Virus record (IMG/VR): IMGVR_UViG_3300021431_000082
Span: 72,047 to 136,046 of that record
Origin: a virus
Lineage: Duplodnaviria; Heunggongvirae; Uroviricota; Caudoviricetes
Strand: one strand, 5' to 3'
DNA: 64,000 nt
Position 1 is the stretch's first letter. Each line of letters opens with the position of its first letter. The notes below the pieces were generated by a model. It saw only the letters and a program-made list of their open reading frames with translations, had not been told where the DNA came from and searched no databases. A program made the translations under genes and the position numbers. Shown in pieces: positions 29,525 to 62,535 of the stretch.

Positions 29525-30733
29525 GTGAATCTGAAAAAGCTACCCAGTGAAAACGAAGTGCAGTATATCTGGAGGCTATCATCTGCTAAAGGTAGTGGTC
29601 TCCTTGACATGAGCTGGCACGATCTATAGATGATCCTTAACGAGGAGCTGGGTTATGACAACTCCGAAAGCGTCTATCGTAAACAGTATGCCGCTGCCAA
29701 GAAGCTTCTTGATGGTGGATGTTTTCCTCGTATCGGTGATGAGTATCTCAAGGAGCTTGAGGCTAAGAAACATGCGCTTGAGGCTGAGCGCCAGAAACTC
29801 TTTGCCACAAAGGTTGAGTACAATCGTCAGGTAAGACAGGATAGCCGGCAGGAACTCTTTTATCAAAATATCGCTGATCATATCGAAAAGATCAACCCGC
29901 CAGTTCGTGAATACTGCTATGGTGGCGGTGGATTTGAAAATGATAAAGAGTATGTTCTCACCCTATCCGACATTCATGCCGGTGCAAAGTTCGAGACTGC
30001 TACAAACTCTTACTCTCTCGATGAAGTTGCCGCTCGCTTCGGAGTCCTCATTGATTCTGTGGATAGCTACGTTCACAAAGAGAATGTGACAAACCTGAAA
30101 GTTCTATGTCTTGGAGATACGATCCAGGGAATCCTGCGTGTATCCGACCTACAACTCAATGAGACATCGATTGTATATGCGACCGTATACATTGCTAAGG
30201 CTATCGCTGAAACTCTTAACGAGATTTCGAAGTGGTGTACCGTTGACTACTATCATGTACCGTCGGCTAACCATACACAGATTCGTCCGCTCGGAACCAA
30301 AGCAAGCGAACTGAAGAATGAGGATATCGAATATATCATCGGTAACTATATCAAAGATGCGCTTTCGTCCAATGTCCGCATCAATGTCCACCTGAACTTT
30401 GATAAAGAGTACATTGAAGTCCCGATCTTTGATGAAACTGCCATAGCTATGCACGGTCATCAGGTCAAAGATGTAGTTGATACTGTAAAGACGCTTGGGT
30501 TTGTTAATCGTAAATTCTATACCGCAGCTTTCCTCGGACATTATCATTCGTCAGGTCGTACTGTTGCCGGTGAAGATGGAACCAAGGACATCGAGGTTAT
30601 TGTCTGTCCGAGCTTTGTCGGTAGCGATCCGTACAGCGAAAGCTTGTTCAAGGGTGCAAGACCTGCCTGCGGTATGTATATCTTTGATAGGACCTACGGT
30701 TTGATCCGTACCGATAAATTTGTTTTAACGTAA
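29525..30733 (+). CDS. Metallophosphoesterase (402 aa; in-frame TAG at 29627)
   Basis: GTG start; LSDIHAG, LGDTIQG, HGHQ, GHYH motifs; the N-terminal QYIWRL...W segment continues through TAG. Confidence 0.85.
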
Positions 30734-30756
30734 TCTATGAAATGGAGTAAAAAGGA

Positions 30757-31056
30757 ATGAACGAAGCTGGATTTAATAACGTCCAGGTACTTCAGGAGGA
30801 GCTTCGACTACGTGGCTTTAAGATGAAGCAGGAAGACGTTAAGGAAGTGTATCTGGCTTTCTGTGATATGATTCGAGATTTTGCAAGGAATGGTTTCGAG
30901 CTAAACTTCCCAAACATCGGAAAGTTTGTAATCGTAGAACATAAGCCAAGGCAGCTCATCAGTAATCTGACTGGCGAAGTTACCGAACTCCCGTCAAGGA
31001 AGAAGCTTAAGTTTAGGCCGAGCAAGAAAATCAATGACATGATTAACCGGAGGTGA
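30757..31056 (+). CDS. HU-like DNA-binding protein
   Basis: FPNIGKF...RQLISNLTGE...KFRPSKKI. Confidence 0.8.
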   Translation: MNEAGFNNVQVLQEELRLRGFKMKQEDVKEVYLAFCDMIRDFARNGFELNFPNIGKFVIVEHKPRQLISNLTGEVTELPSRKKLKFRPSKKINDMINRR

Positions 31057-31061
31057 TTCAC

Positions 31062-32378
31062 TTGGGACGCCGGCCAAAAGCTGAAGCCATCTCGGCTATC
31101 ACAGGATATGCTCAGATAGATACAGCAAAGAATAATATGATAGCCCAGTTTGATCGTATGAAACCGAGAGATCAACTGGACTTCTTAAAGCGTATTGGCG
31201 TTGGCGTTTCTGAATTTCATCCGGTACAGTAGTTCGCTACCTGTGCAAGATGTGGCGAAGTAAAGCCGACAACTGAATTTTATACCAGTACTGAGACTGG
31301 AGTAGCTTCACATATCACGCCGATATGTAAGGCTTGCGCCAAGATTGTTTCATGCGGTATGGACATGAACGGTAATATTCTGCCGCCATCCAAGGCCAGT
31401 ACGATTAATGCAATGGAATGGTTGCGTAAGCCATTCATTGAATCGGTTTATTCACAAAGCATTGCAACCGCCAACAATGGCGGGAAGCTAAATGCTTTTG
31501 ATACATACATGCAGCAGATCTCACGACAGACTTATGTCGGGCAGAACTTCCGCGCTAACTCTGATTTCTACAATGTCAACAAGCCAGTTGTACTTGAGGA
31601 AGAAGAAGCGCCAAAGATGGCACCGATCAATGAGGATGCTGCAAAAGCTTTTGAGAAAAACAAGATTGACTGCCAGCGGCTGCTTGGATATCTCCCATAT
31701 GAAAATGAGGACTCATCCGATCAGCCTTATTTATATGCAGATCTTGTCAACTTCCTTGGTTCTGTCGAGGATGTAACTGAGAACTTCATGCGTGTACAGA
31801 CTATGGTCGGTATCGTCAGGTGGTATCTTCAGATCACAAAGATTGACAACCAAATCGCAAAGCTATCACAGCAGAGCATGGAAGCAAATATGGCAACGAT
31901 TAAAGGTCTCCAGCAAACTAAAGCACAGATCGTTGACACCATATCTAAATCAGCAGATGACTCCAAGATATCATTGAAGTCGAACCGGGATAATATCAAA
32001 GGCTCGAATACATTCACTGGTAAGCTGAGTAAGCTCAGAGACCTGAATCTTCGGGCAAGCTACGTCAACGGCTTCGATTTGGAGACCTGCAAAGCAATGC
32101 AACAGGTGGCGGATATATCTGATGCCGCCATTCTTAAACAGCTTAACCTTGATGAATCTGAGTGGTCCGATATGGTGGCTGAGCAGCGTAAGATGATTAC
32201 CAAGCTCACCGAGGAATCACACAGTTATCAGGAGGCTGCTCGACTAATACTGAAAGAGAACTTAGACCTTCGGGATACATTAAAAGATCATGGACTGCTC
32301 AACGAGGAAGCGTTAACCGACCTTGATGAGATAGTCACGAAGTATTGGGATAACGATGACGGAAGTCCTGAATCCTAA
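31062..32378 (+). CDS. Putative terminase small subunit / packaging protein (438 aa; TAG at 31230)
   Basis: TTG start after GGAGG; CxxC...CKAC zinc motif; directly upstream of TerL. Confidence 0.7.
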
Positions 32379-34446
32379 TATCTACAACGACGATATAGCC
32401 CAGAGATGTGTGTATGGCGCTGAGTTTGTGCGTAAGCTGCTCGGCGTTGAGCTTGGATGGGAAAAGATATACGAACGCCCTCCCGCTCTGTTGATGACAC
32501 ACAAACAGCTCGAAGGGTTTATCAAGCTGTAGCAACAACGTGACTATTACCAACAGAACCCCGTTAAGTTTGTCGAAGATTTCTTTCAGATTCAGTTGAT
32601 TGATTCCCAGGCTTATCTATTTCAGATGGCCTGGATTACACCAAGAGTTATTATCCTTGCAAGCCGTGGATACGGTAAGTCTCTGTTTATCGATCTATTT
32701 ATCATGACTAAACAGATGCTTGCTTCTGAGCCATGGACTTGCGCTATCGCGGCTGGTTCTTCTGACCAGTCGAATACAACCTTTAAGAAGCTCGAAGATA
32801 TTGCCTACGACCGTATCGATTCAATGATCGGTTCGAACGGTAAAATCTTCCGCGAAGAAATTGTTATACCAAACGCCAACGGTGATGGATTCAACCATAA
32901 CCCCTCCAGTTTCTCGTATCGTCTATATAACGATTCAGAAACGAACACCGTCAACTCCAACGTCGATAAGAACAGAGGTAAGCGTAAGCGAGCTGTCTTC
33001 TTTGATGAATCTGGTTTCCTGGACGCCGATCTCGTTCAGGTCTACAGCGCATTTGCAATCGTTGAAAAAGGATTCAAGACTGGATTTGATTCTGACGGTA
33101 ACGCTATTGATATGGTGCGGCTCAGGGCACTCCCACCTGAAGTCCCGAACCAGATCATTAACGTATCGTCCGCTTCGAATACGGACACTGACTTCTATGC
33201 TAAGTATCGTGACTACTCCAAGCGCATGATTATGGGTGACAGATCATTCTTTGTGGCTCATATTGACTGCGATCTTGTTATGAAGCCTACGGTACATGGT
33301 AAGCGAATGAGTGCGCTGTTATCCAAAGACACCATTGATGCAGCTATGCGTACAAACCCTGAGAAAGCTCGACGCGAGTATTACTGTCAGTTCACATCTG
33401 ATGCCGGCGCTAATGCTATCATCAGGCGTGGAGTCATTACCCGTAATGAGAAGACCTATAAACCGATCCATGAGAATTCAGACAATTCCGGTGGATGGGT
33501 AATCTGTTACGACCCGGCAAGAAGTCGAGATAACTCGATTATCTTAGCCGGTCAGATTTATGACTCTCCTACTAATGACGGTAAGATGGAAAAGTGCGGA
33601 AGGATTGTTGAGTGCGTCAACCTGCTTGATGTCGGTAAGAAGATCCGAAGTCCTATGCAGACGCCAGATCAGATTGAATATCTGAAGCAGCTGATTGTTG
33701 CTTTTAACGGTGATGCAGATGGATATGGAAATCTGTACGGAGTCTATATCGACGCAGGATCAGGTGGAGGCGGAGTTAATATCGCTGACTACCTGATGGA
33801 TGATTGGTATGACAAGGCCGGTAACTTTCACCGTGGTTTAATTGACGAGGAGTATTCCGAAGAGTACGTCAAGAAATTCCCGAATGCAGTCCGTGGCAAA
33901 CTGCACTTACTCTCCCCAAGTAAGTACAAGTCTGACATGTATGAAGCCCTCATTGAACTGTTCAATCAGAATAAGATTAAGCTGACAACCACATATGATG
34001 GAAGCGGTCAGTTAACAGTCTTCAATACCGAAGCTATTGACCTCGCTGCCGAAACCAAGAAGATCAGCGCAAAGCTTAAGAGGGAACAGCTTAAGCCAGA
34101 GGAATTCGACGCCAGATTGCAAGAGGAATTAGACAAAGCTCAAAACGTCAACTTAACCGTGGCCAAACTTGACTGGCTTGACGAGCTGTCACTTACAAAC
34201 ATAGACGCAATGAAGGAAGAGATAGTCAACATGGTGCGTATTAGTCGCGCTTCAGGCAAAGACTCTTTTGAGCTTACGCCTGAGAAGCAGAATAAACTCC
34301 ATGATGACCGAGCTTACTGTTGTGCTGAGTTTGCGTATGCTCTCATGTCAGCAAGACGAGCTCATTTAACCGAACGTAAGGTAACACAACCATAGACCCT
34401 CATTGACCGGATGTCAGTGAGAAAACCTCAAATATACAGGAGATAA
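32356..34446 (+). CDS. Terminase large subunit (696 aa; TAG at 32530 and 34393)
   Basis: ASRGYGKS Walker A, FFDESG Walker B, YDPARSRD and LHDDRAY nuclease motifs. Confidence 0.92.
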
Positions 34447-34701: not shown

Positions 34702-36210
34702 TTGGCTAGAAGAACTGTGGCTGCGGCTTCATCGCCGGGAACTGAATTAAGGTAGGTAGCTGAACTTCGAGAGTGGTTTAAGAAAACGGTAGAGTCAATG
34801 GGATCACTGAGGCTGATTGATCTCTCAAAGAACACAACTCGCCGCTACGGAAAGATCACTATCGAAAAGCTCCGCCAGTATTTTCAGAACCCATATCGGT
34901 ATCAGACCGAACTGATTAAAGCCGCTCAATACTTTTATCGGACGAACGCTGTGTTCCAGGCTTTAGTCCAGTACTTTGCTACTATGTTTGTGCCTGATGC
35001 AAGGAGCGTCATTCCACGTTATAACCTTGCCAAGCGTACAGCTGGTGCTGACAGTAAGGTAATCAAAGCTTACTATCAGACGCTTGATGAAATCGAAAAG
35101 CTTGATCTTCTTGCTAACTTTACCAAGATGCTGGTTGACGCATGGACTTGCGATGTAGCGTATGGCGTCCTGTATCGTGATGATACTGGTGCTTTTATAC
35201 TTCCACTTGATCCAGAGTATTGCCGTATCTCCGGTATGAACCCGGACGGTACATTTACTTTCGCCTATAACATGGATTACTTCCTCGGCAGCAACGAGTA
35301 TCTGCTCGACTACTTGGGCGAACCGTTCGTCTCCATGTATCGTGATCGTGGAGATTCAAAGTGGGTGAATGTCCCAAGTAATGTCGGGGTTGTTATCAAG
35401 ATCAACACAAACGACCCGCTTCTCATTATGCCTCCGTTTGCCGGATTGTTCTCAAGTTTAATTCAGCTGTCAAACCTTGAGGACATCCAGGATACAAAGG
35501 ATGCGCTAAGTGCATATAAGATTCTGGTTGCTAAGGTTCCACTTCTTGATTCCAAACTCCCAGATGATTTTGCCGTTGACATTGATACCGCTGAGAAATA
35601 CTGCAAGAAGATTGAGCAGAACCTGATGGAGCAGATTGGATTTGTCATGTCTCCCGGTCTTGATCTGGATGTTCTCGATGTTATGGAAGATGGCACTTCG
35701 GAAGTTAACCGCATCAATCAGGCGCAGAGCAATATCTTTGACAAAGAAGGAGTTCCGCTTCTCGACGCTAAGAACATTACAAGCTCTACCGCATGGAAGC
35801 TTATATCTATCTATAACACGAGACGAGCACTCTCCACTACTCTTCCGCAAATTCAGGCATTTGTGAACCGCTGGCTCCAGGACAAGATTGGACCTAACGC
35901 GGCGAAAGTGGTTTTCCACCTCACCTCTCCATACCTTCTCGACACCTTCCGTGAGCAGATTAAAGATTCTGCTACTCTTGGTATGCCTGTGAAGTTACTT
36001 CTCAATCAGCTTAATGGCGTGAGCGAGATCGACACTCTCAGGATGAACAAGCTTGAGATCGAAGAACTTGGACTGCATAAGGCGTTTATTCCACTCTCCA
36101 CTTCTTATACACAAAGTACTGATGCTGCCGATCCGATTGAAGGTGGAGCGCCAACTAAGATCGAGGTTACCGATAAAGGCGAAGAAAGTCGAGACGGTAA
36201 AGAGCAATGA
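34702..36210 (+). CDS. Portal protein (502 aa; TAG at 34753)
   Basis: TTG start after AAGGAGG; position after TerL; PLDPEYCRI and PLSTSYTQS motifs. Confidence 0.85.
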
Positions 36211-36383
36211 AGCAGTTATTTATTAAGACAAGAGACAAAGGAACGGCTGACAAGCTGAAAGAACTCGGCTTTAAAGTCATTAGCGAGTCTGGCGGAATGT
36301 GGACGTTTCTGAACGACTCCACGATTCGTTTTGACGCTGATGGTAATAAGAAAGCCGTGTACAGCGATAGGATCGAAATCTAA
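36207..36383 (+). CDS. Small conserved head-region protein (58 aa)
   Basis: MKQLFIKTRDKGTADKL...; overlaps both neighbours. Confidence 0.7.
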   Translation: MKQLFIKTRDKGTADKLKELGFKVISESGGMWTFLNDSTIRFDADGNKKAVYSDRIEI

Positions 36384-37879
36384 TGAGAAAACTTATGACA
36401 CTTGATGACCTGTATAGCTTCTACTCTCAGCAGGCCGTATCTGCCAACTTCAGTGTGGATATGGACCATCCTGCGATTGCGGTTGCTGTACCTGGCCGAC
36501 TTACTTACGAGGAGGACGCATAGCAGTTCGGACTTACTCCGGTTGTACTGAATGCGTGTCACACCGGTAAGAATCTCAACCAGTCTCGCATTTCCAAGGA
36601 GACGATGGAGGAGGCGCTACCCTCATTCAGGAATCGCCCGATTCTCGGCTATATCTGGAAGGACGAGGATGGCAATCCGCAGTTTGATTCTCACAACATG
36701 CATCAGGATGAAGATGGGGCTATTGTTTATGACGAACAGCCTATCGGACATATTCGTGAAAACAGTGACGTTCATCTTGAGTATGACGAAGCTGAGGATA
36801 AATATCGTGTGATCGCAGATGGATTTATCTACGATGATTACACGGATGCGGTTGAGATTCTTAAGCGTGAGACACAGTGTGATGTTTCTGTGGAACTTGC
36901 AGTCCTCGACCTTTCATACTCCGCTGAAGAGCGTGTTCTCGACATCAATAAGTTCATCTTCACCGGCGTTACGATTCTCGGTAAGGATGAATAGACCGGT
37001 GAAAAAGTCAATCCTGGAATGGAAGGGTCTAACATCACCGCTTTTGAAAACGGGAATGTAATTACAATTGATGCGTCTAAAATATCTAGCGGTACTATCG
37101 TTGCTAATAACACCGCCCAGTTTACGACGATCAATATAAACGAAAATCAAGGAAAGGAGGGGGATGCAACAGTGGATGACGTAAACATGAACGCTCAAAC
37201 CACTGAGGGGGGATCTACCGTTGATACCACTCCTTCTGCGGTTCGTGCGTATAGTGTTGTTGTTGATGGCGAAACCCACAACTTTGAACTGACGCTCGGT
37301 GACATTCAGTTCGCTCTCAACCGTCTTGTCAATGAGACCTACGGCGAGGCGGACGATTGCTACTATGATGTCGAAGTTTACCCTGATTCCAGTACCGTTG
37401 TTATGTACAACTGGTGGATCGGCAATGAGGGTTATCGTCAGAGCTTTGAGTCCGACGAGGAAGGTAACTACTCTCTCACCGGCGAGCGTGAGGCTGTCAA
37501 GCGTGTCTGGATTACTGAAGCTGAGGAACAGCAGATTGATGCTGACCGCCAGTCTAAGGCAGACCTTGAAGCTCAGCTCGAAGAGATCAAAGGGCAACTC
37601 GCTACATATCAAGAAGCTGAAGCTAAGGCACAAAGACAGGCTGTGATTGAAAGTGAAGATTTCGCTGTCATCGCTGACACTGAGGAATTCCAGGCTATCG
37701 TCGCTGAGATCGACAACTATTCTGTGTCTGAGCTTGAAGATAAGCTGAATACTCTTCTACTCAGCTATGCAAAGAAACAGTTCGCCGCTAATAAGCCAGA
37801 GGCTAAGCCTGTGGTGCAGTTTGCTGTGAACGACAAACCTACCAAGAAGTCTCCGTACGGCGGACTCTTCAAAGACTAA
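36383..37879 (+). CDS. Prohead protease/scaffold (498 aa; TAG at 36521 and 36992)
   Basis: ACHTGKNLN, NRPILG, SVEL, FTGVTILG...PGMEGS; acidic coiled-coil C-terminus; joins three ORF-track fragments. Confidence 0.85.
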
Positions 37880-37902: not shown

Positions 37903-38379
37903 ATGACTAATATTGAAGCATTCCTTGCCTCCGTCAGTAAGCACGCAGTCGCTGAGTAGACCAAGATTAAGGCTACCGAGTGCGGCCACATGTTCAATCT
38001 GAAGGCAGACAAGGATTATGACAATGGTGTTGTTGTTGCTAAGAATGCTTATCTTGAGGGCGATATCTATTCCATCAAGGATTCCACCGACTTTGCTGGA
38101 ACGATTGTTGATATCGCAGCTAATGGCAACTTCATCGTGCATGTTACCGATCCTGGTGATGGCCTGCTTGTTCTGACCCCGCCGCTGGCATATGTGACCG
38201 AGCCTGCTCGTTTCGCTGCCGAGGATCAGTTCTACAACGCTAAGGATTCCATCATGAGAGCTTACGAGCTTGTTAAGGATGATGAGTTCGCTGTTTCTGC
38301 TGAAGGTTTCGATACGACCCCTTCCAAGGGACAGACTGTTACTGTTACTGCTACCACCCGTAAACTCCATACGGCATAA
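37903..38379 (+). CDS. Capsid decoration/auxiliary protein (158 aa; TAG at 37957)
   Basis: AAGGAG RBS; HAVAE*TKIKAT, DYDNG, RAYEL...DEFAVS motifs. Confidence 0.8.
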
Positions 38380-38399: not shown

Positions 38400-39503
38400 A
38401 TGAGAATTACGTTTGATCATGAAGTAATCTCCTCTGTTTTTGAGAACGAGGAGCAGTTCGAGGGCTTTAAGTCCCTGATGTTTGAAGCTGGCATGAAGAA
38501 CTTCAGCGAGGCTTCTATGACTATCGCCAAGGCTAACGCTAAGATCCGTGACATGTTCACAGAGATGACTGGCCTTGAAGTCGGCAAGAAGCATACGAGA
38601 ACTGAAGTGCGTAGAGCTATCCGCAGAATGCAGAATGATCCGGTTTGCTTCGACCTTATGGAAGAGGTTCTGGATCAGATCATCACTACCGGTTGGAATG
38701 AGAATCCGTGGTTCAACGAGTTTGTTGAGAAGAGAAATCCTGCGCTTGGTGATTCCATCGTATTTACGACAGAAGATGATACTGTCCTTTCTGTCGAGAA
38801 GGTTGCTGGGAATCATCACGATCTACGCAGACAGCGCCTTGGCGTTGGTTCTCATGTAACTCCGACGACCGCTTGGTATGGCGTTAAGGTTTATGCTGAG
38901 TTCGAAAAAATTCTTACCAACCAAGAAGACTGGAGCAAGCTTGTCTCTAAGGTTGCTGAGGCGTTCGTGAAGTTTGTTATTGACTTCACCTATTCCGCTA
39001 TCGGTCAAGCTACTACCAAGATGGCTACCGAGGCTAAGTTCCACAATACCGGATCTCTGTCCTATGCTAACGTCATTGCTCTTGCCGGCGAGGTTGAGGC
39101 TGTGAACCAGGGTTGCGAAGTCGTGATCATGGGTACCAAGACCGCTCTTGCTAACCTGTATGCGATTGCTCCGGCTCAGTGGATTTCCAACGAGATGCAG
39201 CAGGAGCGCAATCAGACTGGTAAGCTTGGCATTTGGCAAGGCTACAGACTGGTTGAGATTCCGAACGGTTACACCGATAAGACTCTGACCACGAAGCTTG
39301 TTGCTGACGATCAGATCCTGTTCATCCCGGTTAGCGCCGATATGAAGCTTGTCGCTATGATCGATGAGGGTGATGGTGTTATCACCGAGATCAATGATCA
39401 GGCTGTCCATATGGATATGACCTACGATTACGAGTATCAGCGTAAGATGGGCTTTGCTCTTCTGCTTCGTAGGAAGTTCGGTGTCTGGACTTCTATTGTC
39501 TAA
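38400..39503 (+). CDS. Major capsid protein (no TAG)
   Basis: 367 aa; strong codon bias; position after protease and decoration genes. Confidence 0.85.
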   Translation: MRITFDHEVISSVFENEEQFEGFKSLMFEAGMKNFSEASMTIAKANAKIRDMFTEMTGLEVGKKHTRTEVRRAIRRMQNDPVCFDLMEEVLDQIITTGWNENPWFNEFVEKRNPALGDSIVFTTEDDTVLSVEKVAGNHHDLRRQRLGVGSHVTPTTAWYGVKVYAEFEKILTNQEDWSKLVSKVAEAFVKFVIDFTYSAIGQATTKMATEAKFHNTGSLSYANVIALAGEVEAVNQGCEVVIMGTKTALANLYAIAPAQWISNEMQQERNQTGKLGIWQGYRLVEIPNGYTDKTLTTKLVADDQILFIPVSADMKLVAMIDEGDGVITEINDQAVHMDMTYDYEYQRKMGFALLLRRKFGVWTSIV

Positions 39504-39559: not shown

Positions 39560-40105
39560 ATGCCAAGAAAGGCTAAACCGGCTACTGATAAAGTTGCCGC
39601 TCCAATTGAGACGCCTGTTGTGGAAGTTCCCCAGGTTAAGGAGTATCAGCCGTATGATCTGATTCCGTGCCAGTCTCTTACGAGCGGCGAAATGTTTTAT
39701 AACAGCCCGAAGTCAAATACCATGTACAAATGGGATGATAACGGAGCCATCATTGATGTAACCTATGAAGACCTGATCGCTATGAAGCAGTCTCACTCTG
39801 AACTGATGTACCGCCCTTGTTTCATGATTATGGATAAGGAACTGCTTGCTCAGCCGAGATGGATGGATATCGCTAAAATTTACAGCGGTTATGACATCAT
39901 ATCTCTGAGTGACGCAGAGAAGGTTATCAATCTGGACGTTAACTCCCTAAGTAAGGCTCTTAATCGGCTTACACCGGCAATGAGAGCCGTCATTTGCAAT
40001 ACTGCCGCAGACATGATCGAGAAGGGTACTCTTGATTCAATTGCGAAGATCAAGGCTATCGACGAAATCTGCGGAACGGAACTGTACACCCTTGCCTTCA
40101 AGTGA
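39560..40105 (+). CDS. Head-completion region protein
   Basis: 181 aa; ends LDSIAKIKAIDEICG. Confidence 0.7.
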   Translation: MPRKAKPATDKVAAPIETPVVEVPQVKEYQPYDLIPCQSLTSGEMFYNSPKSNTMYKWDDNGAIIDVTYEDLIAMKQSHSELMYRPCFMIMDKELLAQPRWMDIAKIYSGYDIISLSDAEKVINLDVNSLSKALNRLTPAMRAVICNTAADMIEKGTLDSIAKIKAIDEICGTELYTLAFK

Positions 40106-50041: not shown

Positions 50042-53000
50042 ATGGCGGATCTTAAATTTTCATCTAAAAGCAAGATGTTAGATATGGATGCCATTACAAA
50101 GAGCATTGAAAACACAGTATTATCGTAGTTTCAAAAGCTTACGTCCAATCTACAAAAAGAATTAAAACTAGAGTTAGAGGTACCTATTGAGTTCACAGAA
50201 CAGAAGAAAAGTCTAAACAAGTAGATTAGTAATCTACAAAGGTAGATTGATAACTCTCTGTAGGATGTTCGATAGGAACTTCAAAAAAGCATTGAAGATC
50301 GGTGGAAATTCAATCGTACCGGAAAATATGGCACGAACAAAAAGAATCAACCAATAAATCTTAGTGATTATACTAAGATGGTTGATATCAGAGACTATAA
50401 AAACAAGCGCCTCGAAATGATTAAGCAATTAGCTGATATTACAGATGATGGGATCAAATTAAAAGATCCAAAAAATCTACATCAGCTAGTTCAAAATATA
50501 AAAGCTTACGAAGAAGCTTTGCGCAGATTACATGAACTTTCTGCACAGAGAAATATGAAGTATAAGCCTGATGAGGGCGAGCTTAATTTTGAACAATTAT
50601 TTCCAGGGTATAAGCTCTCGGGTGATATGCAAGCAAATGCAGACGCAATGGCAAAATCCTTTGCAACTGCATATAAGACGTCGTTGCAATCAGAATTAGA
50701 AAGCAAAAAAAATGAATTATCCAATATATTGCTTGATATTAATAGAGCTGTTGCAAGAAGCGCAAGCAAACAAGAAGGCGTTGGGTATGAATATGATCAG
50801 AAGGCGTATGAAAAAGCGGTAAAAGCTAGGGAGGACGCCCAGCTTCGCATTGATCATAGCGAAGCTCAGATTGAAAACTCTATCAGAGATGAGATTAATG
50901 CGTATATAGAACTTGAACGAAGGCTGAATAGTCCTGACCTAGATTAGAACAGTGCGCTTTATGAAGATCTGGCTGATCGCGAAGATAATAGTTTGGCGCG
51001 ATTAAAAAGAGCGATTGAACTAATTGATAAATATAAGATTGAAATTCCAGAATTAACAAAGGTCTACAATGAAAATTGGAATCTGAGTGGAGAGACACTT
51101 GGCGATCTTATTCGTGAAAACGTAGACGGTTTCGATTAGAACACTTCGTTCTTAAGTGGTTTTGAAAAAGATGCCGAAAGGGCAAAATCAGACTGGATAA
51201 AAGCAAATAGAGATGTTGATACAGCAAAGTAGTATCTTGATTCTTGGAAGGACTTATTACTTCAGTTAAAAGATACTGATCAGATGCAAGAAGCCGTTGA
51301 TAATATTTAGAAAGAAAAGATTGATTCTGAATTACGATCTTTAAGAGAAGAAAATGAACGGCTCTCTTAGCGTATCCAGGTTTTAGAGGATGAACTGAAT
51401 ACATTTCAAAACGAAAATGTATATAACGATACTGGTTATCATGATGCTCAGGTAAATACTGTAGCAAAATCTGAAGATACGCATTCTCTTGATGCTGAAA
51501 TAGATGATGTCAATTTATTAAACAATGCGATAAAAGATGTCATCAGCTCAATTCATAGCAAAACTGAGGCGTTCGGATCAGAACGTGATAGTGTTGTAAA
51601 CTGGCTTGATGATGAAATAGAAAAAATAGATGAGCTATCTCGAAAGGCTGATAGAGTCACACCAGATCTTTCTTTAAATAATGGTGGCGAGCTTGTAAAT
51701 AACAGCACTGCGAATGGTAATTCATTTTCTGCTTTGCAAGACTCGGTCTCTTCTGTTACTTAGAGTGTCATACGATTTGGAGAAGCTGTTGATACGGCGT
51801 CGCAAAAGCTCGGTAATATTAAAACCAAAAATGCGTCCAGTCCAAAAGAAAGTTCATAGTCCGATTTTGAAAAACGTGTGGCATCTGCGGCCAAAGCCCT
51901 TAACAATTAGACAAACCAGTTTATTTAGGGCGTTGATGTTATTGTTAAAACAGAAGAAGAATATCAGCGGTTGAGCCGCAAAAGTAATCGCTCAAGTAAG
52001 GAAAACACCAAGCTTAATACTTTATTAAATGAACGAGCCGCCGCTCGTGATCGAATGGATAGGAACCATGTTGACCACGAAACATTTATGGCACAGCGCG
52101 AAAGGATGGAATCAGCGTCAAGGCGTGCCGCATAGGCGATTCAAGAAGAAGTCAGAGCAGAACGCGAACTTGCCAAAGCTGAAGCGGAGCAAGCAGAACA
52201 GGCAAGAATTGCAGCTCAAGCTAAAGAAGAAAAAGCGAAACGTGACGCCGCCGCAAAAGTTGAACAAGAAAGACAGGCAGAGCTTGCGGAAACTTATAAA
52301 AAGTTTGACTACCTTGAAAAGAATATGAACCGATATGTTCAGGGTACTCTGCTTGGCGATTCTGGCGATGACTGGGATGACTTTTCAAAGAATTTTGAGG
52401 AGACGTTGGCGTTTGCCAAGAATCTAAAAGCTGATACAGTAGGCATTATTGAAGCTAAAAGGAAATTAAATAATGCCGAGGAAGAGGCGTATCTTAATGC
52501 CGAAATTGAAAACGGAGTTCGTCTTGAGCAGCAACGTGTTAATCTAATTGCCCAGGCAAAAACCGAGAGAAAAAATGAAGCGGATGAGCTTGTGAAAATG
52601 GATCAGGATATTGGTCGAGCTTTTGCCACAAATACCTCGTCTAAATCCGCTAAAGATTCATATAGTATTTTTGCCAGTACCGGCATGATAGACGAACAAG
52701 CCACAGAAGAAAAAGAATGGCTTGCAAAAATATCTGAATATCAAGATTTACAATCAAAGATTTCGGATCTCTTATCAAAACAAGCAACGGTTGGATTGAC
52801 GCCAAATCAATCATAGAAGCTCGATGATTATCGTGATAAGCTTGCCAGCCTTGAATTAGCCTTTGATGATCTGGAAGATGGCGTTTTAGTCTCTGATAAA
52901 GTAAAAGATGCGGTAAATAACATGGCTGCGTCTGGAGAAAGGGATATAACTTCATATAATAAAATTCTTAGTGAGTTTAATAAGAATTTTGCTTTTGTCC

Positions 53001-56000
53001 AGAAGCTTTCAAATGGGAGTGAAGACAGCATTAAGGAAGCCCTCCGGCAATATATAGAAGATAATGGTGGACGGGATTTAAAGAACTTCACTGGTGTTGG
53101 CACAAAGAATGGAGTATCAAATTTTACCGCAGAATTTACCGGTGCTGATGGCGCAATCAAGAAATTAAATGCCTCTTTAAACACTACAGATAATACACTG
53201 CGTGGTGTTGTTAAGTCTGGAAGGAGTACTGGATAGTTCTTTAGCGAACTTGTTGATACAATCTCTAATAAGTGGAGATCATTTATTGGTTATCTGTCTA
53301 CGCAGGTAACTGTTATGCAACTCTGGGGGATCTTAAAACAAGGTATTGCAGTAGTTAAAGAACTTGATTCTGCATTTGTAGAATTAAAACGTATTTCAAA
53401 TGATTCCGCTTCTGCCCTTGAGGACTTTAGAAAGAGATAGTTCGAACTTGCCGATACTGTTGGCACTACATCTGCAACGATTATAAATGCTGCCACGGAG
53501 TGGGAACACCTTGGCTATAGCATTAAGGAAGCTGAGGAGCTTGCAAAGACGTCAGCTATCTACAAAAATATCGCTGATGGTATGACTAGTGACTCTGAGG
53601 CAACCGAAGATCTCGTCAGTATTCTTAAGGCATACAACTTCGAGGCTAACCAAGCAATGGATGTTACCGATGCTCTTATTGCGACATCCAATAACTATGC
53701 GGTAACCGCTGCTGATATCGGTAATATTCTTAAGCGCTCTTCTGCTGCTCTTGCTATGGGTGGTAACTCATTCGAGGAAACCGTAGCTCTTGGTACGGCG
53801 ATGAACGAAGTGCTTCAGTCGGCAGAAGTCGCCGGCTCAAGTTTGAAAGTTCTTTCTCTCCGTCTCCGTTCAAGTAAGACCGAGCTTGCAGAAATGGGTG
53901 AAGAGACCGACAATCTTGTTGAGTCTACGCCAAAGCTTAGGACGCAGATCAAGGCTCTAACAAAAGGTTTTGATATCCTTGGTTCTGATGGTAAAACGAT
54001 AAAGAGCACGTATGAAATAATGAAAGGTATTGCGGCAGTCTGGAAGGATATGTCAGACGTAGATCAAGCCGCACTCCTTGAACTTATAGCCGGTAAGACT
54101 CGTGCACAAGGCGTGTCAGCACTTTTGAGTAACTGGTCCCAGGTTGACGAGGTCCTTAAAACCATTGCCGAAGACGAAGGTACCGCTCTTAGGAATAATG
54201 AGGCGAAGCTAAATACAATACAAGGTAGGCTTACAAAACTTACAAACGCAAGTCAGAAACTCGCATCTGATGCGCTAAATACCGAACTGATTAAAGATTT
54301 TATTAGTGGCGTAACTGGAGCGGTAAACGCTTTAGACACACTCATTCAAAAGATCGGTATCCTTCCAACTGCTGCTGGAGCAATCGGTCTCGGTACAACA
54401 TTTACAAAAGGCGGAGGTCAGCTCAATCAGAGCTCATATCCTAAATGGATGAAATCCTACAAGGCCCCCGGCATAGTGCGTGGTAACACGAAACAAGTTC
54501 ATGCGTTCTAAAGATTTATGCTATAAGAAACAGACCTAGCGGGTACTAGGTCTGCTCACAGGGATCATCCAAGTACAAAGTACTTAAGAAGATCATAAAT
54601 AACACAGGCGATAATACCGCACACGATATTAAACGCCGCAGACTATAGAAGCTATCTCAATAGCATTTACCTCCTTCCAAGCAACGCTTATCAGTTACAG
54701 GAGGCATTATAGCATAAATCTTCAGAGCACATGAGCGAGGCTATGCGTAGTTAACCCGACGAAACTAGCGGACTGATCATCCGCTCTATCAATAGCAAAT
54801 TGATTTAAGACTGGGACATGCAAAGCATTTACATGCGGAGCATTATCAGCAGCGAAGCCATCTTATGATGGAACGTCCAGAGACTATAATGTCGGTGTGG
54901 AGCCGCTTGAATTGCGAACTTCATAAAGGGATAGTCCAAAGAATGTGTAACACACATGATCCAGGTATCGGAACCTGCAAACAAATCCGAGTTTGTTTGT
55001 AATCAACATTCATGCGGATTTATGTTGATTATCTTTAGCAAGATATGCAAATATTTTATTGCGTATATTGTCACACAGGATAAGTCGTAGAACACGGCTA
55101 AGTTAAATTCTATGAAAAGATATAGAGAACTCAAACAAGGGCACGAGAACTAATCTCCTGCCATATTATTATCCGAGTATTTGGCCGCTTTCAAACCGAG
55201 TATTTGTCAGAACTTGCTTCCGCAGTTATTACACTTATACGTCTTCCCTACATCTCCCATTCCAAAGATACCGAATATCCCTATCTTCGCAGCTTTCCCA
55301 ACGGTGGAGAGCTTTTTTAAATCCGTAGAACCGCAGATGGGACAATGGGGAATGTGGGTGGGTTGAGGCTGTGTAAGTTTTTTAACTCGTTCTTCAGCAT
55401 CATCCCATTCTTTTTTATTTTTTGCATCTGCTATTGCTTTAAGTTGTTTAAAGTACTCTGTTTCACCATCGTGTATAATATGTTCTTCGATATATTTATC
55501 TTTTTCGTCTTTTGGAAGTTTAAACCATGCGACAGTATCGTATTCAAATATATCCCATACATGATGACACACAGGGCAATGATCTGATTTTGCGAAAGCT
55601 TTTAACGCCATACTACCGCACCTTTTACAAAAGACTAATTTTGCTTCATCCATTATAAACCTCCTTATATGTATGGTTCTTTGATATTGTATCATGTTTT
55701 TGCTTGTAGGTGGCATTCTCAACGCTTATAAGAACCGTAATCCAAAGGGTGGTACTACTAATCTGTTTTAGACAGATATGTTTTCCGATGATCAAAAATC
55801 TAGCATACAGTTCATGAAAGACAATGATCTGTTAACGAAGGAAAACATAGATCATTTGACCGAGTTTAACAGTGCTCAAAAGGAAGTTCTTGAACTGATG
55901 GGCAAAAAAGACATCGGTATGGAAGAAGCCATCAAAGAACTTGGTGAGTCTGCTCAAGAGTCTGGTGGATTACTCCAACTCTTTAAAGAAAAAGGTGTTG

Positions 56001-59000
56001 ATGCATTTAAAGCCGTTGGTCTTGCGATTGGCAACATGTTAGCTGCCGCAACAATCTCCTTCCTTGCAACACAGGCCATGGCGTTTATTGACGAGTGGAT
56101 CAACCACACCAAGAATCTGAATAATTCCGCCAGGGAATTCGGCGCTCAGATGAAGCGCACTGAGTCTGATATAGATTCATATGGTGAAAGAATCGCCGCC
56201 CAGAAATCTATCATTGAAGACAATAAGTCTTCTATTGAAGATGTCACAACCGCTCGGGCTGAGCTCTATAAGATTCAGTCTGAGATGATTGCCGCATATG
56301 GTGGCGAAGGCGAATCTATCAAAGCTATTACTGATGCTATTAACGGACAGAATGACGCTCTCGACAAGAACATTGAGAAGCTAAAAGAACAACAGCATCA
56401 AAAGGCTATTGAAGATTTTAATAAAGAGAACGATGACTGGCGTAAGGCGACAGTACGTTAGATGAAGAATGCGACTATGACAGATGATGGCGTGATAATT
56501 CCATCAACCATGACTGCTTTTGAAGAGTTTATGGATAATATGGAGAATTATCAAGTTAATCTGTCCGCAATAAACGACGCATTACCCGAGAAAGAATTCC
56601 AAGACGTTATCAAAAAACATGCGGATCAAAATGACTGGACTGATTTATCTTCCGCTGTTGGAAACGTCAATCAATTCGTCAAGCTATATGATGAATTAAT
56701 GGATACGGCTAGTATGCTGCGTGATTCATCAAACGGTGGAATCAGTCAAGATAGATACGATTATATATCAAAGTATATAACGCAGTTGAGTAAGCCGGCT
56801 AGGGATACAGCATAGAGCAATCGTGATCTTTATGAACAGGAGATGCTTCATCAGATCCGTTAGAGAAAGGATCTTAACGATAGGTATTCAGACCTATCTG
56901 ACCTTTATGGTAAGTATCTCAAAGCGGATACAGCGGAGTTACAGCACGAAGTCTATGAAGCATATTCTGCCGCAGTTAAACAGATAGCCGACGATAAATC
57001 AATTAGTTATGGCATACGACAGCAGTTCCTGAGTCTGTATCCAGATTTAAAGGCAGAGGCGGACAAGTGGACATTCGAGGTAAACTTTAAAGCCAATAAA
57101 GATGGACTGCGTGACGAAATACAGAAACAGATTGATGCAATATCTGCTGCGATTGGTCATGCTGTAACTCAAGAAGAATTAGATCATTGGGACGATTCCC
57201 AATATGACGCTATCGCAAATTCAGCTTATAGTAATTACGCCAGGACGCTTTCACAAAACGGAATATCATCCGTACAAACTGGGAATGCTATCGCTGTTGA
57301 ACAAGGTGTATTAGATACAAATACTACTGGCGCTTTAAAAGATTTTATCGAAAAGAAAGCCCCTGGGGCAATTAACGATGTCGATAAAAACCTAATCGCA
57401 GCTGTAAAGGATGTAAAAAATTTCCAAAGTGCTTTTACCAGAGCTTGGAATAAAATTGGCAAAGATGTTCCGAATGACGGGCAAAAGGTAAACGTCGCTT
57501 TAAAGCTAATGGCCAGAGAAGCCGAAAGCACAGCAAAGACCACAGAGAAAGAACTCAGTGGCATGGATCTTTCCGACGTTGCCAAGCATCTCACAAAACT
57601 AGGCGATGTTTATGACAAGCTTAAAAAAGATGGCGAAGTAAAATGGAACACTATTGATACCAAGGATTTCAAAGAATCCTTTGGCGACATTAAAGATGAA
57701 ACTGGTGAATTCCAAAAAGCATGGGATAATTTTCATCAGATTTTAAGTTCCACACCTAACGATACGAAAGCTGTACAAGATGCATTTGATACTCTTGCGA
57801 GTTCGTATGTTTACAATTCTGATTGTATGCAAATGCTCAATGAGAATAACAAAGATCTTGTTATTGGTATGTTGAGCGATAATGGTGTAGCAAATGCGGC
57901 AGATGTTGTTAATGATGCATTAAATCGTAAAGCTGCGGCGGCTGAATACGATGCATTTAGTGAGGATCTCCTGGCACAAAAAGGTGTTGATCTCGCTAAT
58001 GTAAGCGGCGAAAGCGCAACTGCTACACTTGAAGAAGCGACAGCCTTTTTAAAATAGGCTGGTTATGCCGAAGAAGATCAGGCGGCAATTGCACGGCTCA
58101 TCCTTGAACAGTGGGCTCTTAACGGATAGCATATCGACACATCTGATAATTGTAATGCACTTGCTGATCTTGCGTAGATGGCTGGGGTTGCTGCCTCTTA
58201 GATCATAGCATTAAACAACGCTATGGCCGGTGGAACTACATCTGCATCGTAGGCGTCTGGTGGGAACTTCGCCATGCTGAACAATGGCGTAGATTCACAA
58301 AAAGCCAACCAAGAATATCAGAAAGCTTAGAGAGAATATGAAACTAAAAAAGCGCTTGAAGATATTCGACAAGCCAGAGAAAACATACGCTTTAAAGGTA
58401 GCGGTGGATCTGGTAGTGGCGGTGGCTCTGGCGGTGGTGGCGGGAACAAAGAACCGTCCAAAACCGACAAAGAATTCGACTACGTCAACCGTGCTCTTCA
58501 GATCATGCAAGAGCAAAATGATGAACTCCGTGAAAAGGTAGACAATCAGTACGTCATCCTCCAAGATGCCCAGGATAATCTCGCCGAATTTACATCTGCA
58601 TCTGATAGCCTGAACGAAGCAGAAACTAAACTCACCAGTCTCGGCGTTGATACAAAGACTGACGACTTCAAAAACTTTATCGCCACTCTCGATGAAGTCC
58701 AACAAGTCAACGATGAGATGAACCAGATGATCGACGATACCCCAGGATATGTATTGCCTGCCGGTGATACATTCGCAAAGGTTGAAGCCGAGAATTATGG
58801 TGATCTCATTGAAGCCGCAAGAGAATACAAGTCTGCTCTTGGTGACGTTGAGAAAGCCAAAGAGAAAGTCAACAGCAAAACTCTTGATGAGAATGGAACC
58901 GGTCAGCTTACATTCATCAAACAGCTTCAGGAATCAGACAAGAAACTGATTGAAGCCTACGAACACGCCGCTAATTCTTATAGTACCGAATGGGAAGAAT

Positions 59001-61453
59001 ATAAGAAAAAGATCGAAGAAGCCTTTAAGGAAGACGGTCGTGGCGAAAAGTATATCCAGGATATCATGTATGGTAATCTCGATCCCGAAGAATGGGAGCG
59101 GATGATCACATATGATTCCAATAACCAAGCCGAAAAGGATAAGGTCGAACTGCTTGAGCGTGGTCAGACAGCCTATGACCATCAGAAAGAATCACTGAAG
59201 TCCATGCGTGAATGGCAGACGAAGCTTAACGAGGATGTTCAGAAAGAATATGAAATGCGTCTGAACATTGTCAAGGCTGAGATGGTCGCCATTGAATCCC
59301 GTATGAACGAAGCTCAGCATGATCTTGATATGAAGGAAATCCTTGGTGAGGTCGTGCAGGAAGCTGATTATCAGCGGTTGATTGGAATCTCTCAAGAGCA
59401 GGTCTCTAACTACGAGAAACAGCTGAGCGTTCTTAAGGAGCAGCTTGGTACTCTCGATGAAGGTGAGCAAGCCTGGTATGACTGCAAGTCTCAGATCGCT
59501 GACTGTGAACAGAGCATCCGGGATTGTGTAAAACAACAGGCCGAATGGAATGATACCATTCTGAGAATGCCGGTTGAGAACATCTCCCGCTTCCTCGGTT
59601 TAATCCAGAATCTCGGACAAACTCTTGAGAACTGGTTATCCGTAAATGATGCCAAGGGTATTGCCCAGACTGCCGAGCAGATCATGACATCATGGACCAC
59701 AGCTTATGATCAGATTGCTGATGATGAACTCGGATTAATGAAGCAGCTGGAAGATTACCAGGATTTGCTCGAAAATTATGATCTCGGATAGAACAAATTT
59801 TCTGAGGTAAGTGACGAGATTCAGAGTGCTCGTGATTCTGTTGAGTCTCTGGTCGAAAAGATGATCGAGTTGAATAAGCAACTGCTTACTCTTCCGATTG
59901 ATAAGATCGCTGAGATGACCACATATCTTGATGGTACTCTCTCCGACCTACAGACGGTTCAGTCCGAGCATGAGACGGCGATCAACACCGTTATCGAACT
60001 GATTACCAAAGAGCAAGAAAAGCTTGAAGACGAATATACCAAACTTGAAGAGTCAATACAAAAGCAGATCGAACCACTACAAGATCAGCTGGATACATTG
60101 CAGAAAGCAAATGATGCCCGTGATCGTGAATTGGCAGTCGAACAGGCTTTATACGAACTGGAAAAAGCTCGTGAGCAAAAGACAGTCCAGGTCATCCGTA
60201 ATGGTCGTGTCGAATACGCAGCCGATGAATCGGCAATCAGGGACGCCCAACAAGGTTATGATGATGCGGTTTACAATAAGCTTACCGGAGAACTCCAAGA
60301 TAAGATCGACGAACTGAACGACTCTCTTGAGAAATCTCGTAAGTCAACCGACGATCAGGTTAAAGCTCTCGAAGACCTCAAGAAGGAAAGATGGGAAACC
60401 ATCATGCCAGATACTGAGCGTAATCGTAACGAAGAGATAACCTCTCAGTTCTTTAAGGATATGTTTGGAGTTACTAACTGGAAAGAACTGGTGCTCGCCG
60501 GCAAGGACGCAAACGGTAACTACGCAGATGAAGCTATCTATCAGGGAACTCGTGCTAGTTACGAACAGAACTCTGTACAGATGCGTGATACCCAGCGTCA
60601 AATCGATGCTAACAATCTGATCACAGATTAGCTGACCAGACTCGTTGAAGATTTCCAGGCTGACCGGATTACGTCAGAGCAACTCTTCGCTAAAGTGTCC
60701 ACGCTTATGAGCTTTGTCAAAGATGGAATCATTACCGGACAAGAGCGGCTTGAGAACACTCTCTCACTCGGTGATTACTCCACTCTCGGTGCTGCATTAA
60801 AGGGAGCCGTAGAACAACGTGGAAGCCAGATCGAACTGTTCGGAGAAAACCTTAAGGTTGCGACTGATAACCGGAATAAGGTCAATGCTCTCATTGGAAA
60901 ATGGGATAACTTTAAAGTTTGGTACGATACAACATACAAACAGCTTTATGAACAATATAGGAAGATTGACTTCATCGGCGACTATGTGAAGAATATCTCC
61001 GACCATATTGATGATGACGATGATGAAAGGGGACCAGGGACTGTTTTTGAAAGTTCATCACGAGACCCTGAAGATTATCGTGGAGACGCCAGTTATAATG
61101 ATGTTGGACATTATTCTGATGGCCTTGAAAAAGGAGCTATTGGAAGTTTAACTCCATCTGATCGGTTCAAAGCCATCCAAGCACTCGGTCTTCGCAAACT
61201 CGATCCCGATGAATTCCCCGCCATTCTCCATCTCGGTGAAGGAGTCATCAATCCTCGTCAGCAATCCACCATGCTCGATAACATGCGTCAGGCTCTTGCT
61301 CTTGGAGGATCAGGAACCGGAGCTGTCATCCAGATGTCCTTCGGAGATATTAGTCTTCCATCTGTAACCAATGGTCAAGACTTTGCGGAATCTCTGGCTG
61401 TGCAATTCCAGCCGGCGATGAACCAGGTCTTCTCAAAGATCTTCAGGCGTTGA
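50042..61453 (+). CDS. Tape measure protein (about 3,375 aa after splicing; 30 in-frame TAG; one intron)
   Basis: One reading frame throughout. TMP core ELDSAFVELKRIS...LGYSIKEAEELA...ATEDLVSILKAY...AVGNV-type helices; Gly/Ser linker at about 58395-58445; C-terminal EFPAILHLGEGVIN. Confidence 0.85.
54419..55702 (+). ncRNA. Group I intron in tape measure gene (boundaries are a prediction)
   Basis: Q-like ATCAGCAGCGAAG near 54845; R-like CCAGAGACTA 54877-54886; S-like AAGGGATAGTCC near 54926-54937; P7 GACTA/TAGTC; P3 CCGAC (54756)/GTCGG (54891); P8 TGTGGAG/CTTCATA; TAA at 54509 otherwise closes the frame. Confidence 0.75.
55207..55653 (-). CDS. Zinc-ribbon membrane-associated protein inside the intron
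   Basis: AAGGAGG RBS before MDEAK; four CxxC pairs; HCPICGSTDLKKLS...IGIFGIFG...YKCNNCG. Confidence 0.8.
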   Translation of the reverse strand: MDEAKLVFCKRCGSMALKAFAKSDHCPVCHHVWDIFEYDTVAWFKLPKDEKDKYIEEHIIHDGETEYFKQLKAIADAKNKKEWDDAEERVKKLTQPQPTHIPHCPICGSTDLKKLSTVGKAAKIGIFGIFGMGDVGKTYKCNNCGSKF

Positions 61454-61478
61454 CAATCTTCCACTGTCACACTATAAT
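61450..61478 (+). promoter_or_regulatory. Consensus sigma70 promoter for putative antitoxin sRNA
   Basis: TTGACA-17 nt-TATAAT. Confidence 0.85.
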
Positions 61479-61484
61479 ATAAAT

Positions 61485-61892: not shown

Positions 61893-61973
61893 TTAATCTT
61901 TTAAGTAATCGAGAACAGATACAAGTAGCTGTAACTACATAAGTATCACGCCAAGAAAAGCATAATCGATCAT
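61893..61973 (-). CDS. Type I toxin-like hydrophobic peptide 2 with in-frame TAG (MIDYAFLGVILM*LQLLVSVLDYLKD)
   Basis: AAAGGAGGTG RBS; TAG at 61935-61937; TAA stop; TGGTATAAT promoter near 62032-62040. Confidence 0.68.
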
Positions 61974-62111
61974 ACACATCACCTCCTTTAAAACATACAA
62001 GGAGAGCTCTGGTGGTGTGGTAGGTCTTTATATTATACCACCTGTCCTTTATTGGATGGGTGGTCTTTTATTGCTAACAAATGTTTATTTGTTGGTTAGG
62101 AGAAAAAGGAA

Positions 62112-62318
62112 TTGATTAAATGTAACGAATGCGAATACGGAGACAATTGTCCGTGTGGCTACAGCTATTGTAATGCGGCCTGTCTGACAATTCAAAAGCT
62201 GAAGCGACACACATGTGGAAAATGCTATTGGTACTCCGATGTCGGCGTTGAATGCTGTGAACATGAACACGATCCTACCACCTATGATTCACCGGCATGT
62301 AAATATTTCGAGGAATAA
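62112..62318 (+). CDS. Small Cys-rich protein
   Basis: 68 aa, multiple CxxC; TTG start. Confidence 0.6.
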   Translation: MIKCNECEYGDNCPCGYSYCNAACLTIQKLKRHTCGKCYWYSDVGVECCEHEHDPTTYDSPACKYFEE

Positions 62319-62319
62319 A

Positions 62320-62535
62320 ATGGATATTTCAACGAACATTTCATACGATCCCAGTGTCTGCGAACACTGTTTTAATAATCCAAAGAACAACCCAAATGCA
62401 AGTGGTATCTGCTGTTGCTCTCTTCCGTATATGACGAGGACGGGTTTGCCTTCGTATTAGACTTCGACCTCAACAGACTATAAGGTCAACAGCGGCGTTA
62501 CTAATATTAACATTACTAATACATGTATAACTTAA
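62320..62535 (+). CDS. Small Cys-rich protein with Ser/Thr-rich tail (71 aa; TAG at 62458)
   Basis: CEHCFNNP...ICCCSLP; read-through ends at TAA abutting the next RBS. Confidence 0.65.

Follow-up and report, generated by a model that had tools for sequence, protein, structure and literature searches.

The 64,000-nucleotide stretch of DNA analysed here (the window) corresponds to nucleotides 72047-136046 of the virus record IMGVR_UViG_3300021431_000082, a single record of 151,909 bp, and carries a module of late, structural genes in which the amber triplet TAG recurs within the reading frames. Minus-strand genes are read leftward from about 21 kb of the window and plus-strand genes rightward from about 22 kb, and the late module crosses the record junction into large tail-fibre open reading frames (ORFs), for example genome 1836-9431 with 16 TAGs. 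The last 126 nt of the record (nt 151784-151909) are a copy of nt 8-133, so that the contig closes on itself and its gene inventory is probably complete. An initial annotation, made from the window alone, had proposed that TAG is a sense codon throughout the late module. Our data confirm this, and they indicate that the codon is most likely read as serine and not as glutamine.

The late genes and the polymerase gene preceding them are listed below. Positions are those of the window unless marked as genome positions, and L and G numbers denote related loci and genome records used for comparison.

26431-29187, plus strand: YonO-like single-subunit RNA polymerase (918 amino acids), the last gene before the recoded block
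29525-30733, plus strand: exonuclease; TAG 29627 (codon 35), conserved in L001 and L002; phrog_284, E=6e-46, residues 30-391 of 402; GTG start backed by GGAGGT
31062-32378, plus strand: YonG-like gene; TAG 31230; start 31062 backed by a Shine-Dalgarno motif; Pfam YonG_N on the L002 homologue
32323-34446, plus strand: large terminase; TAGs 32530 and 34393; phrog_2, E=2e-25, residues 75-681 of 707
34702-36210, plus strand: portal protein; TAG 34753 (codon 18); phrog_2739, E=2e-74, residues 45-500 of 502
36383-37879, plus strand: YonD-like head protein; TAGs 36521 and 36992; phrog_3313, E=4e-49; Pfam YonD_N on the L002 homologue
37903-38379, plus strand: head-module gene; TAG 37957 (codon 19); phrog_4147
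38400-39503, plus strand: YonB-like structural gene; no TAG; phrog_4088, E=1e-64
39560-40105, 44256-44639 and 46130-46783, plus strand: further late genes free of TAG according to the TAG listing
40114-40575, 40541-40888, 40885-42030, 42027-42623 and 42623-43366, plus strand: five overlapping neck/tail genes; 7 TAGs (40183, 40441, 40778, 41050, 41422, 42510 and 42797)
43385-44200, plus strand: YomU-like tail tube gene; TAGs 43442, 43487 and 43577; phrog_2729, residues 5-257 of 271; Pfam YomU_Tube on the L002 homologue
44681-44926, plus strand: small gene; TAG 44768, conserved in L002 and L003
46773-47237, plus strand: RuvC-like Holliday junction resolvase; TAG 46854 (codon 28); phrog_827, E=3e-18, residues 4-151 of 154; start 46773 backed by a Shine-Dalgarno motif
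48962-49372 and 49344-50039, plus strand: two genes before the tape measure gene; TAGs 49022, 49031, 49392, 49662 and 49872; starts backed by Shine-Dalgarno motifs
50042-54511, plus strand: tape measure gene, first part; 18 TAGs; Pfam PhageMin_Tail, E=2e-22, residues 1135-1351
54512-55693, no strand assigned: insert in the tape measure gene, with a minus-strand zinc-ribbon ORF at 55207-55722 (weak Pfam hits)
55694-61453, plus strand: tape measure gene, second part; 12 TAGs
62215-62535, plus strand: small conserved gene; TAG 62458, at which L106 has TCA, L107 TAG and L108 CAG

TAG as a sense codon of the late genes

When TAG is read as sense, the share of the region 29525-62535 covered by plus-strand ORFs of at least 100 amino acids rises from 0.644 (translation table 11) to 0.892, while these ORFs drop in number from 32 to 29 and the longest of them reaches 1919 instead of 599 codons. 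Control read-throughs of TGA or TAA reach only about 0.77 and create extra ORFs (57 and 51, respectively). A gain in coding density of this kind was one of the checks that the initial annotation had put forward. Its statement that, apart from the intron, no TAA or TGA interrupts the genes holds as well: both are absent from the two parts of the tape measure gene (1489 codons with 18 TAGs and 1919 codons with 12 TAGs), in whose alternative frames they make up 3.6-11% of the codons, and across about 10,000 late codons the only interrupting triplet is TAG.

We count about 56 TAGs within genes: the tape measure gene has 30, a further 25 are spread over 16 genes that lie between 29.5 and 50 kb, and the last is at 62458. 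The earlier count by hand (about 55) was close in total and identical for the tape measure gene, but had assigned 23 TAGs to 15 genes and two to the downstream region; the second of the latter belongs to a tiny candidate ORF and was left out here. Also excluded were the TAGs at 32332, 44902, 46734 and 46755, which lie upstream of better-supported starts, in the case of 32332 probably upstream of the terminase start. Most late genes have a start backed by a Shine-Dalgarno motif upstream of their first TAG, and the overlap of stops with following starts, likewise described before, is seen in the neck/tail block 40114-43366.

Reading through TAG fuses gene fragments into full-length terminase, portal, tail, RuvC and tape measure genes, as had been predicted, and PHROG and Pfam alignments cross TAGs in the exonuclease, the terminase, the portal, the tube-like protein, the RuvC-like resolvase and the tape measure protein. 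The codons are moreover retained in other assemblies. All 16 aligned TAGs are present in the independent IMG/VR contig L001, 10 and 8 are common to L002 and L003, which come from different data sets and are separate assemblies of one relative (about 80-93% identity), and 5 are shared with the near-identical ENA contig L107. Assembly errors, which the initial annotation had named among the findings that would overturn its proposal, are ruled out by this recurrence. The late module uses TAG as a sense codon.

The amino acid assigned to TAG

The initial annotation had suggested a search of the remaining genome for a tRNA with the anticodon CUA, and such a gene is present outside the window. It lies at genome c[51797-51883] (87 nt; ARAGORN, with an Rfam score of 52 bits), within an array of ten tRNAs on the minus strand (genome 50.0-52.5 kb) in which no theta or HDV-like ribozyme was found. 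The tRNA(CUA) belongs to class II, with a variable arm formed by a 6-bp stem and a 4-nt loop, and features a G73 discriminator, G1-C72 and C11-G24. In this phage and in G002 alike, G73 is found in all Ser tRNAs and A73 in all Leu and Tyr tRNAs. The D-arm is almost the one found in the phage's tRNA-Ser(UGA); overall, the two tRNAs share 66% identity and have no close sequence relation. As pairwise identity to other tRNAs did not discriminate the isotype, structural and identity elements were used instead; serine identity derives mainly from the long variable arm and does not depend on the anticodon (tRNA identity review, PMC9976931). Judged by these elements, the tRNA(CUA) is a predicted serine-type tRNA.

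The label Pyl, which ARAGORN assigns from the anticodon alone, was rejected in view of the long variable arm, the normal D-arm and the lack of a class-II synthetase core in the genome. Readings of TAG as Sec, Leu or Tyr in this phage were rejected on the tRNA features and on the log-likelihoods described below. ARAGORN with introns allowed found no second CUA tRNA in the genome, and a degenerate pattern scan of IMG/VR for the tRNA(CUA) gave no further copy. The gene for release factor 2 (RF2) or for a tRNA synthetase, which the initial annotation had thought worth looking for, did not turn up: profiles for release factors RF1/RF2 (PF00472, PF03462), the class-II synthetase core (PF00587), the N-domain of seryl-tRNA synthetase (SerRS; PF02403) and glutaminyl- and glutamyl-tRNA synthetases (GlnRS/GluRS; PF00749) found nothing in the genome.

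Two further elements were observed at the tRNA array. A tRNA-like gene at genome c[52363-52435] (L109 3364-3436) has an anticodon loop of 8 nt (ARAGORN 'gggt'; Rfam tRNA 36 bits) and could be a four-base decoder or a decoy. Just upstream of the array, L109 3903-3987 on the minus strand (genome about 52902-52986) shows a sub-threshold Rfam match to the RAGATH-27 RNA (51 bits against a gathering score of 76).

The alignments agree with the tRNA type on serine:

INDEPENDENTLY

Opposite the TAGs outside the tape measure gene, L002, L003 and L004 carry either TAG or a sense codon, and the latter specifies serine 11 times and glutamine not once. TCG, TCT, TCA, TCC, AGT and AGC are all seen at TAG columns. 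Examples are TCG at the portal TAG 34753 (L002 and L003) and at the terminase TAG 34393 (L004), TCC at the tail tube TAG 43577 (L002), and TCT or AGC, besides TAG, in relatives at 37957. Serine codons also occupy TAG sites of the neck/tail block in close relatives, as well as the tape measure TAGs 58055, 58127, 58199, 59789 and 60629.

For a likelihood test carried out locus by locus, substitution tables were derived from the same alignments, and L106, L107 and L108 were added for the tape measure region. Serine is the maximum-likelihood residue in all five close loci (L002, L004, L106, L107 and L108), with summed log-likelihoods relative to it of -33 for Ala, -39 for Thr and -40 for Gln. A distant set of about 80 IMG/VR loci, whose portals are about 35% identical, gives serine as the best residue again over 18-19 TAG columns, with Gln 6.8-7.6 lower. 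Single columns range from strongly serine-dominated, as at 41422 (S in 61 of 70 relatives), over mixed ones such as 42510 (S 32, N 10, T 7), 40441 (S 37, G 26) and 37957 (P 45, S 21), to the terminase column 32530 (A 47, S 4, C 2). Identical treatment of other recoded relatives led to different residues: G001 scored best with Glu (62 columns, Gln -25.7), G002 with Tyr (25 columns, Phe -15.9) and L029 (IMG/VR 3300021387_001657) with Leu (16 columns, Met -3.1, Gln -21.8); at 7 of the L029 columns the window has Leu. The results for G001 and G002 demonstrate that the procedure does not default to serine.

Several observations weigh against this assignment. The five close loci are in part interdependent, and with the distant homologues on their own Ser cannot be told from Thr or Ala, the log-likelihood gap being only 1-2. 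Tape measure columns compared with distant relatives (20-30% identity) lack serine enrichment, with 3 S and 2 Q among 45 residues, and even in close relatives Gln stands opposite some tape measure TAGs (3 in L106, 3 in L107 and 1 in L108). As for the tRNA, the pair G2-C71, which is conserved in most bacterial tRNA-Ser, is replaced by U2-A71; the phage's own tRNA-Ser(UGA) likewise lacks it and has C2-G71, so that the phage family departs from the E. coli rule. Taken together, serine remains the most likely reading of TAG in this phage.

Restriction to late genes, a putative gate and rival explanations

The recoding is confined to the late part of the genome. In the genome as a whole, 49 late plus-strand ORFs hold 91 in-frame TAGs (4.3 per 1000 codons), in contrast to 9 in the 69 early minus-strand ORFs (0.65 per 1000), most of which are extensions past the real stop. 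The stops of 81 early ORFs are TGA in 46 cases, TAA in 32 and TAG in 3. No internal TAG occurs in the plus-strand genes between 22 kb and the end of the polymerase gene, and the first recoded gene starts at 29525; the recoding therefore starts exactly where the late genes begin. YonO reportedly transcribes the late genes of SPbeta (Forrest et al. 2017), and the late genes following the polymerase gene are presumably YonO-dependent. The polymerase gene itself terminates with a TAG (codon 919/921) that is followed two codons on by TAA (window 29185-29196), a back-up by which termination would be safe with or without an active suppressor.

The position and the context of the sense codons are likewise non-random. 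Outside the tape measure gene, 16 of 25 TAGs fall at codons 17-70, against an expectation of 25.6% (binomial p=6e-5; Fisher test against Ser codons p=2e-4); none precedes codon 17, and seven lie at codons 17-24. An A follows 49 of the 97 sense TAGs (late ORFs genome-wide; background 33%, chi-square p=3e-4), and a T follows 26 of 53 true TAA/TGA stops. Amber suppression is reportedly most efficient before A (Bossi 1983; Miller and Albertini 1983). The bias towards a 3' A and the early position of the TAGs suggest selection on read-through.

These observations can be combined into a model in which one phage would use two codes. The early and middle genes, i.e. the minus strand and the plus-strand block up to the polymerase gene, would be translatable by an unmodified standard-code host, while the late block, which extends from 29525 past the end of the window and, the record being circular, into tail-fibre and lysis genes, would depend on the phage-encoded tRNA(CUA) to decode its TAGs as serine. 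As no release factor or synthetase gene was found in the genome, this tRNA would have to be charged by the host, presumably by SerRS, which does not read the anticodon, and to compete with host RF1. With the suppressor tRNA in short supply, late proteins would be aborted as short stubs, given that the TAGs lie at codons 17-70; their position can thus be read as a translational gate that, together with YonO-like late transcription, would control the synthesis of virion and lysis proteins. It speaks against the model that the gating function is deduced from codon position only. On balance, we regard the model as a whole, with sense TAGs in late genes only, serine insertion by the phage tRNA(CUA), presumed charging by host SerRS and a putative gate on late genes, as highly probable.

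Other explanations of the sense TAGs have to be considered. Recoding of TAG as glutamine (table 15), with the tRNA(CUA) charged by GlnRS, has the advantage of being the sole TAG reassignment published for phages that differ from the host code (Borges et al. 2021 preprint, doi 10.1101/2021.08.26.457843; phAss-1 paper), and it could account for the Gln codons that face some tape measure TAGs in close relatives and for column 40183, which has Q in 24 of 67 relatives. We nevertheless consider it very improbable, as glutamine scores 40 log-likelihood units below serine in close and 7-8 below in distant relatives, has no codon at any TAG column of L002-L004 outside the tape measure gene, and would require a class II tRNA(CUA) quite unlike the phage's own 73-nt tRNA-Gln(UUG), with a variable arm whose loop of only 4 nt shows that it is not a copied anticodon hairpin. 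A different possibility is compatible with serine decoding: the decoding may be deliberately partial, host RF1 competing with the suppressor tRNA such that every TAG gives both stub and full-length protein and the number of TAGs sets the protein dose. That no RF2 or anti-RF1 gene was found in the genome would fit, as would the range of TAG load, from 30 in the tape measure gene to none in several structural genes, the YonB-like gene among them, and the enrichment of A after TAG, which suggests selection on suppression efficiency. However, 30 TAGs in an essential tape measure gene would leave almost no full-length product unless suppression were near complete, and such dosage control appears unlikely.

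The phage might also simply follow a host in which TAG is a sense codon, since altered-code hosts exist for some phages, e.g. with code 25. This is hardly credible in view of the early genes, which are essentially TAG-free apart from ORF-extension artefacts and a few of which end in TAG, of the tRNA(CUA) that the phage brings along, and of the related loci, 68 of 85 of which lack in-frame stops and some of which are flagged as Firmicutes proviruses. We attach practically no weight to the idea that the TAGs are sequencing or assembly errors, or that they mark a decay of the late genes into pseudogenes: four or five independent assemblies have the TAGs in common, TAG is the only triplet that interrupts about 10,000 codons, and biases in position and context are present.

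That late genes can be recoded is established for gut phages, as the initial annotation had noted, with published cases that read TAG as Gln. Phages with TAG recoding and a tRNA(CUA) include crAss-like phages, Lak phages, the Garnet, Topaz and Agate clades and phAss-1 (doi 10.1101/2021.08.26.457843; PMC10607447; PMC9523058), and the Borges et al. preprint found only TAG-to-Gln and TGA-to-Trp reassignments in phages differing from the host code. For phAss-1 and crAss-like phages TAG means Gln, and annotation tools offer table 15 only. The present phage resembles these code-15 phages in that only late structural and lysis genes have in-frame TAGs, early genes follow the standard code, a tRNA(CUA) is encoded by the phage and the host is presumed to be a standard-code organism; late-gene regulation has been proposed for them, too. 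It differs in belonging to another, SPbeta-like lineage, in the lack of a detected RF2 gene, and in the alignments and tRNA type, which indicate serine where those phages read Gln. A full-text literature search for TAG-to-serine reassignment in phages found no report. Late TAG recoding with a phage tRNA is thus known, and the serine meaning is most likely the new part.

A counterpart of the tRNA is known from bacterial genetics. The supD (serU) allele of E. coli is a tRNA-Ser amber suppressor with the anticodon CUA that arose as a laboratory or spontaneous host mutation. Like supD, the tRNA(CUA) would be a serine tRNA with a UAG-reading anticodon, but in the present case it is encoded by a conserved gene of the phage, and about 90 codons of essential genes would rely on it. 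Serine amber suppressors such as supD work because SerRS ignores the anticodon (PMC9976931). SerRS would be the one synthetase for which an altered anticodon has no cost, and for the same reason the serine route may be the easiest of all. This is of interest because the Gln/Trp-only pattern of surveys has been used to argue that GlnRS and tryptophanyl-tRNA synthetase (TrpRS) are specially exploitable; a serine suppressor would represent another natural route. In practical terms, table 11 breaks the late genes of this phage, and table 15 would misplace Gln at about 90 sites of the genome, some of them in the terminase, portal, tail tube and tape measure proteins, while the tRNA(CUA) is a natural candidate for amber-suppression tools in Firmicutes.

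Kinship, other recoded relatives and split genes

The product of the polymerase gene 26431-29187 shares about 39% identity over 94% of its length with yonO of SPbeta-group Bacillus phages (tblastn) and has a Pfam RdRP match of 31.3 bits. Pfam YonJ, YonG, YonD, YonB, YomW and YomU domains are found in preserved order on homologues in close relatives (precomputed hits; L002, L005 and L006). A local Pfam search of ten late window proteins gave no match, although PHROG profiles did match. The portal is 25-29% identical to portals of large siphoviruses of Bacillus, Lactococcus and Brevibacillus, and megablast of 13.8 kb of the window against GenBank phages found no match. From the YonO-type polymerase, the Yon/Yom gene order and the portal similarity, the phage can be assigned to the SPbeta-like siphoviruses of Firmicutes, with an origin in gut or rumen-type metagenomes. 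The Bacillus phages SPbeta, phi3T, SPR and Goe11 share with it the YonO-type RNA polymerase, the Yon/Yom structural order, a large genome and a very long tape measure gene. In contrast to its standard-code relations, represented by the 68 of 85 loci without in-frame stops in the aligned genes, the present lineage has acquired an amber-recoded late module.

In a portal tree, a serine clade that comprises the window, L001 and L002/L003, with L004 as sister, stands apart from the lineages with Tyr, Leu and Glu, which are each placed among standard-code relatives. This distribution points to several independent origins of amber recoding with different meanings. Each of the four residues has a codon one base away from TAG. 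We lean slightly towards the view that the meaning of amber is not fixed in this phage family, and that Ser, Glu, Tyr and Leu readings arose by repeated capture of different suppressor tRNAs, yielding a private code for late genes with a gate at codons of about 20-70. Such a code could also block recombination with co-infecting relatives, or exploitation by them. If the Glu, Tyr and Leu readings are true, the meaning of amber evolves repeatedly within one family, which bears on our understanding of code change and of phage-phage incompatibility.

Two of these recoded relatives are represented by long records. G001 (112 kb; the record of L034, with loci L117-L122) contains 321 TAGs in ORFs of at least 150 amino acids (e.g. 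G001:75239-93121), has a tape measure ORF of 5960 codons with 132 TAGs, and encodes a class-I tRNA(CUA) of 73 nt at c[26061-26133] with C at position 33. In G002 (129 kb; the record of L075, with loci L110-L116; 100% complete according to CheckV) in-frame TAGs are sparse, at 1-3 per gene, and align with Tyr; a CUA anticodon is missing from its set of 13 tRNAs, and a tRNA-Tyr(GUA) is present.

The tape measure gene of the window is split. Its first part aligns with tape measure ORFs of G002, G004, G005 and G007. The two parts share one frame across an insert of 1.18 kb, the second lacks a Shine-Dalgarno motif, and both match a single ORF of 3971 amino acids in G004. The initial annotation had spoken of an intron, which agrees with these three features; on the other side, an Rfam search of 54300-55800 at E-values of at most 1 gave no intron match, and a window-wide Rfam search remained without a match as well. 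It is plausible that 54512-55693 is an intron, although Rfam lends no support to one of group I. A gap of about 1.9 kb is present at the same tape measure junction in G007, and G006 has an insertion of 2.2 kb elsewhere in the tape measure gene.

Split genes were also observed in standard-code relatives. In L005 (9836-12485) and L006 (8062-10711) the YonB-like gene is found in two pieces of 144 and 199 amino acids around a GIY-YIG/NUMOD3 homing endonuclease gene, which suggests either an intron or the insertion of a free-standing endonuclease in a head gene. In L005, an IS605 OrfB/TnpB-like gene adjoins the YonG-like gene.

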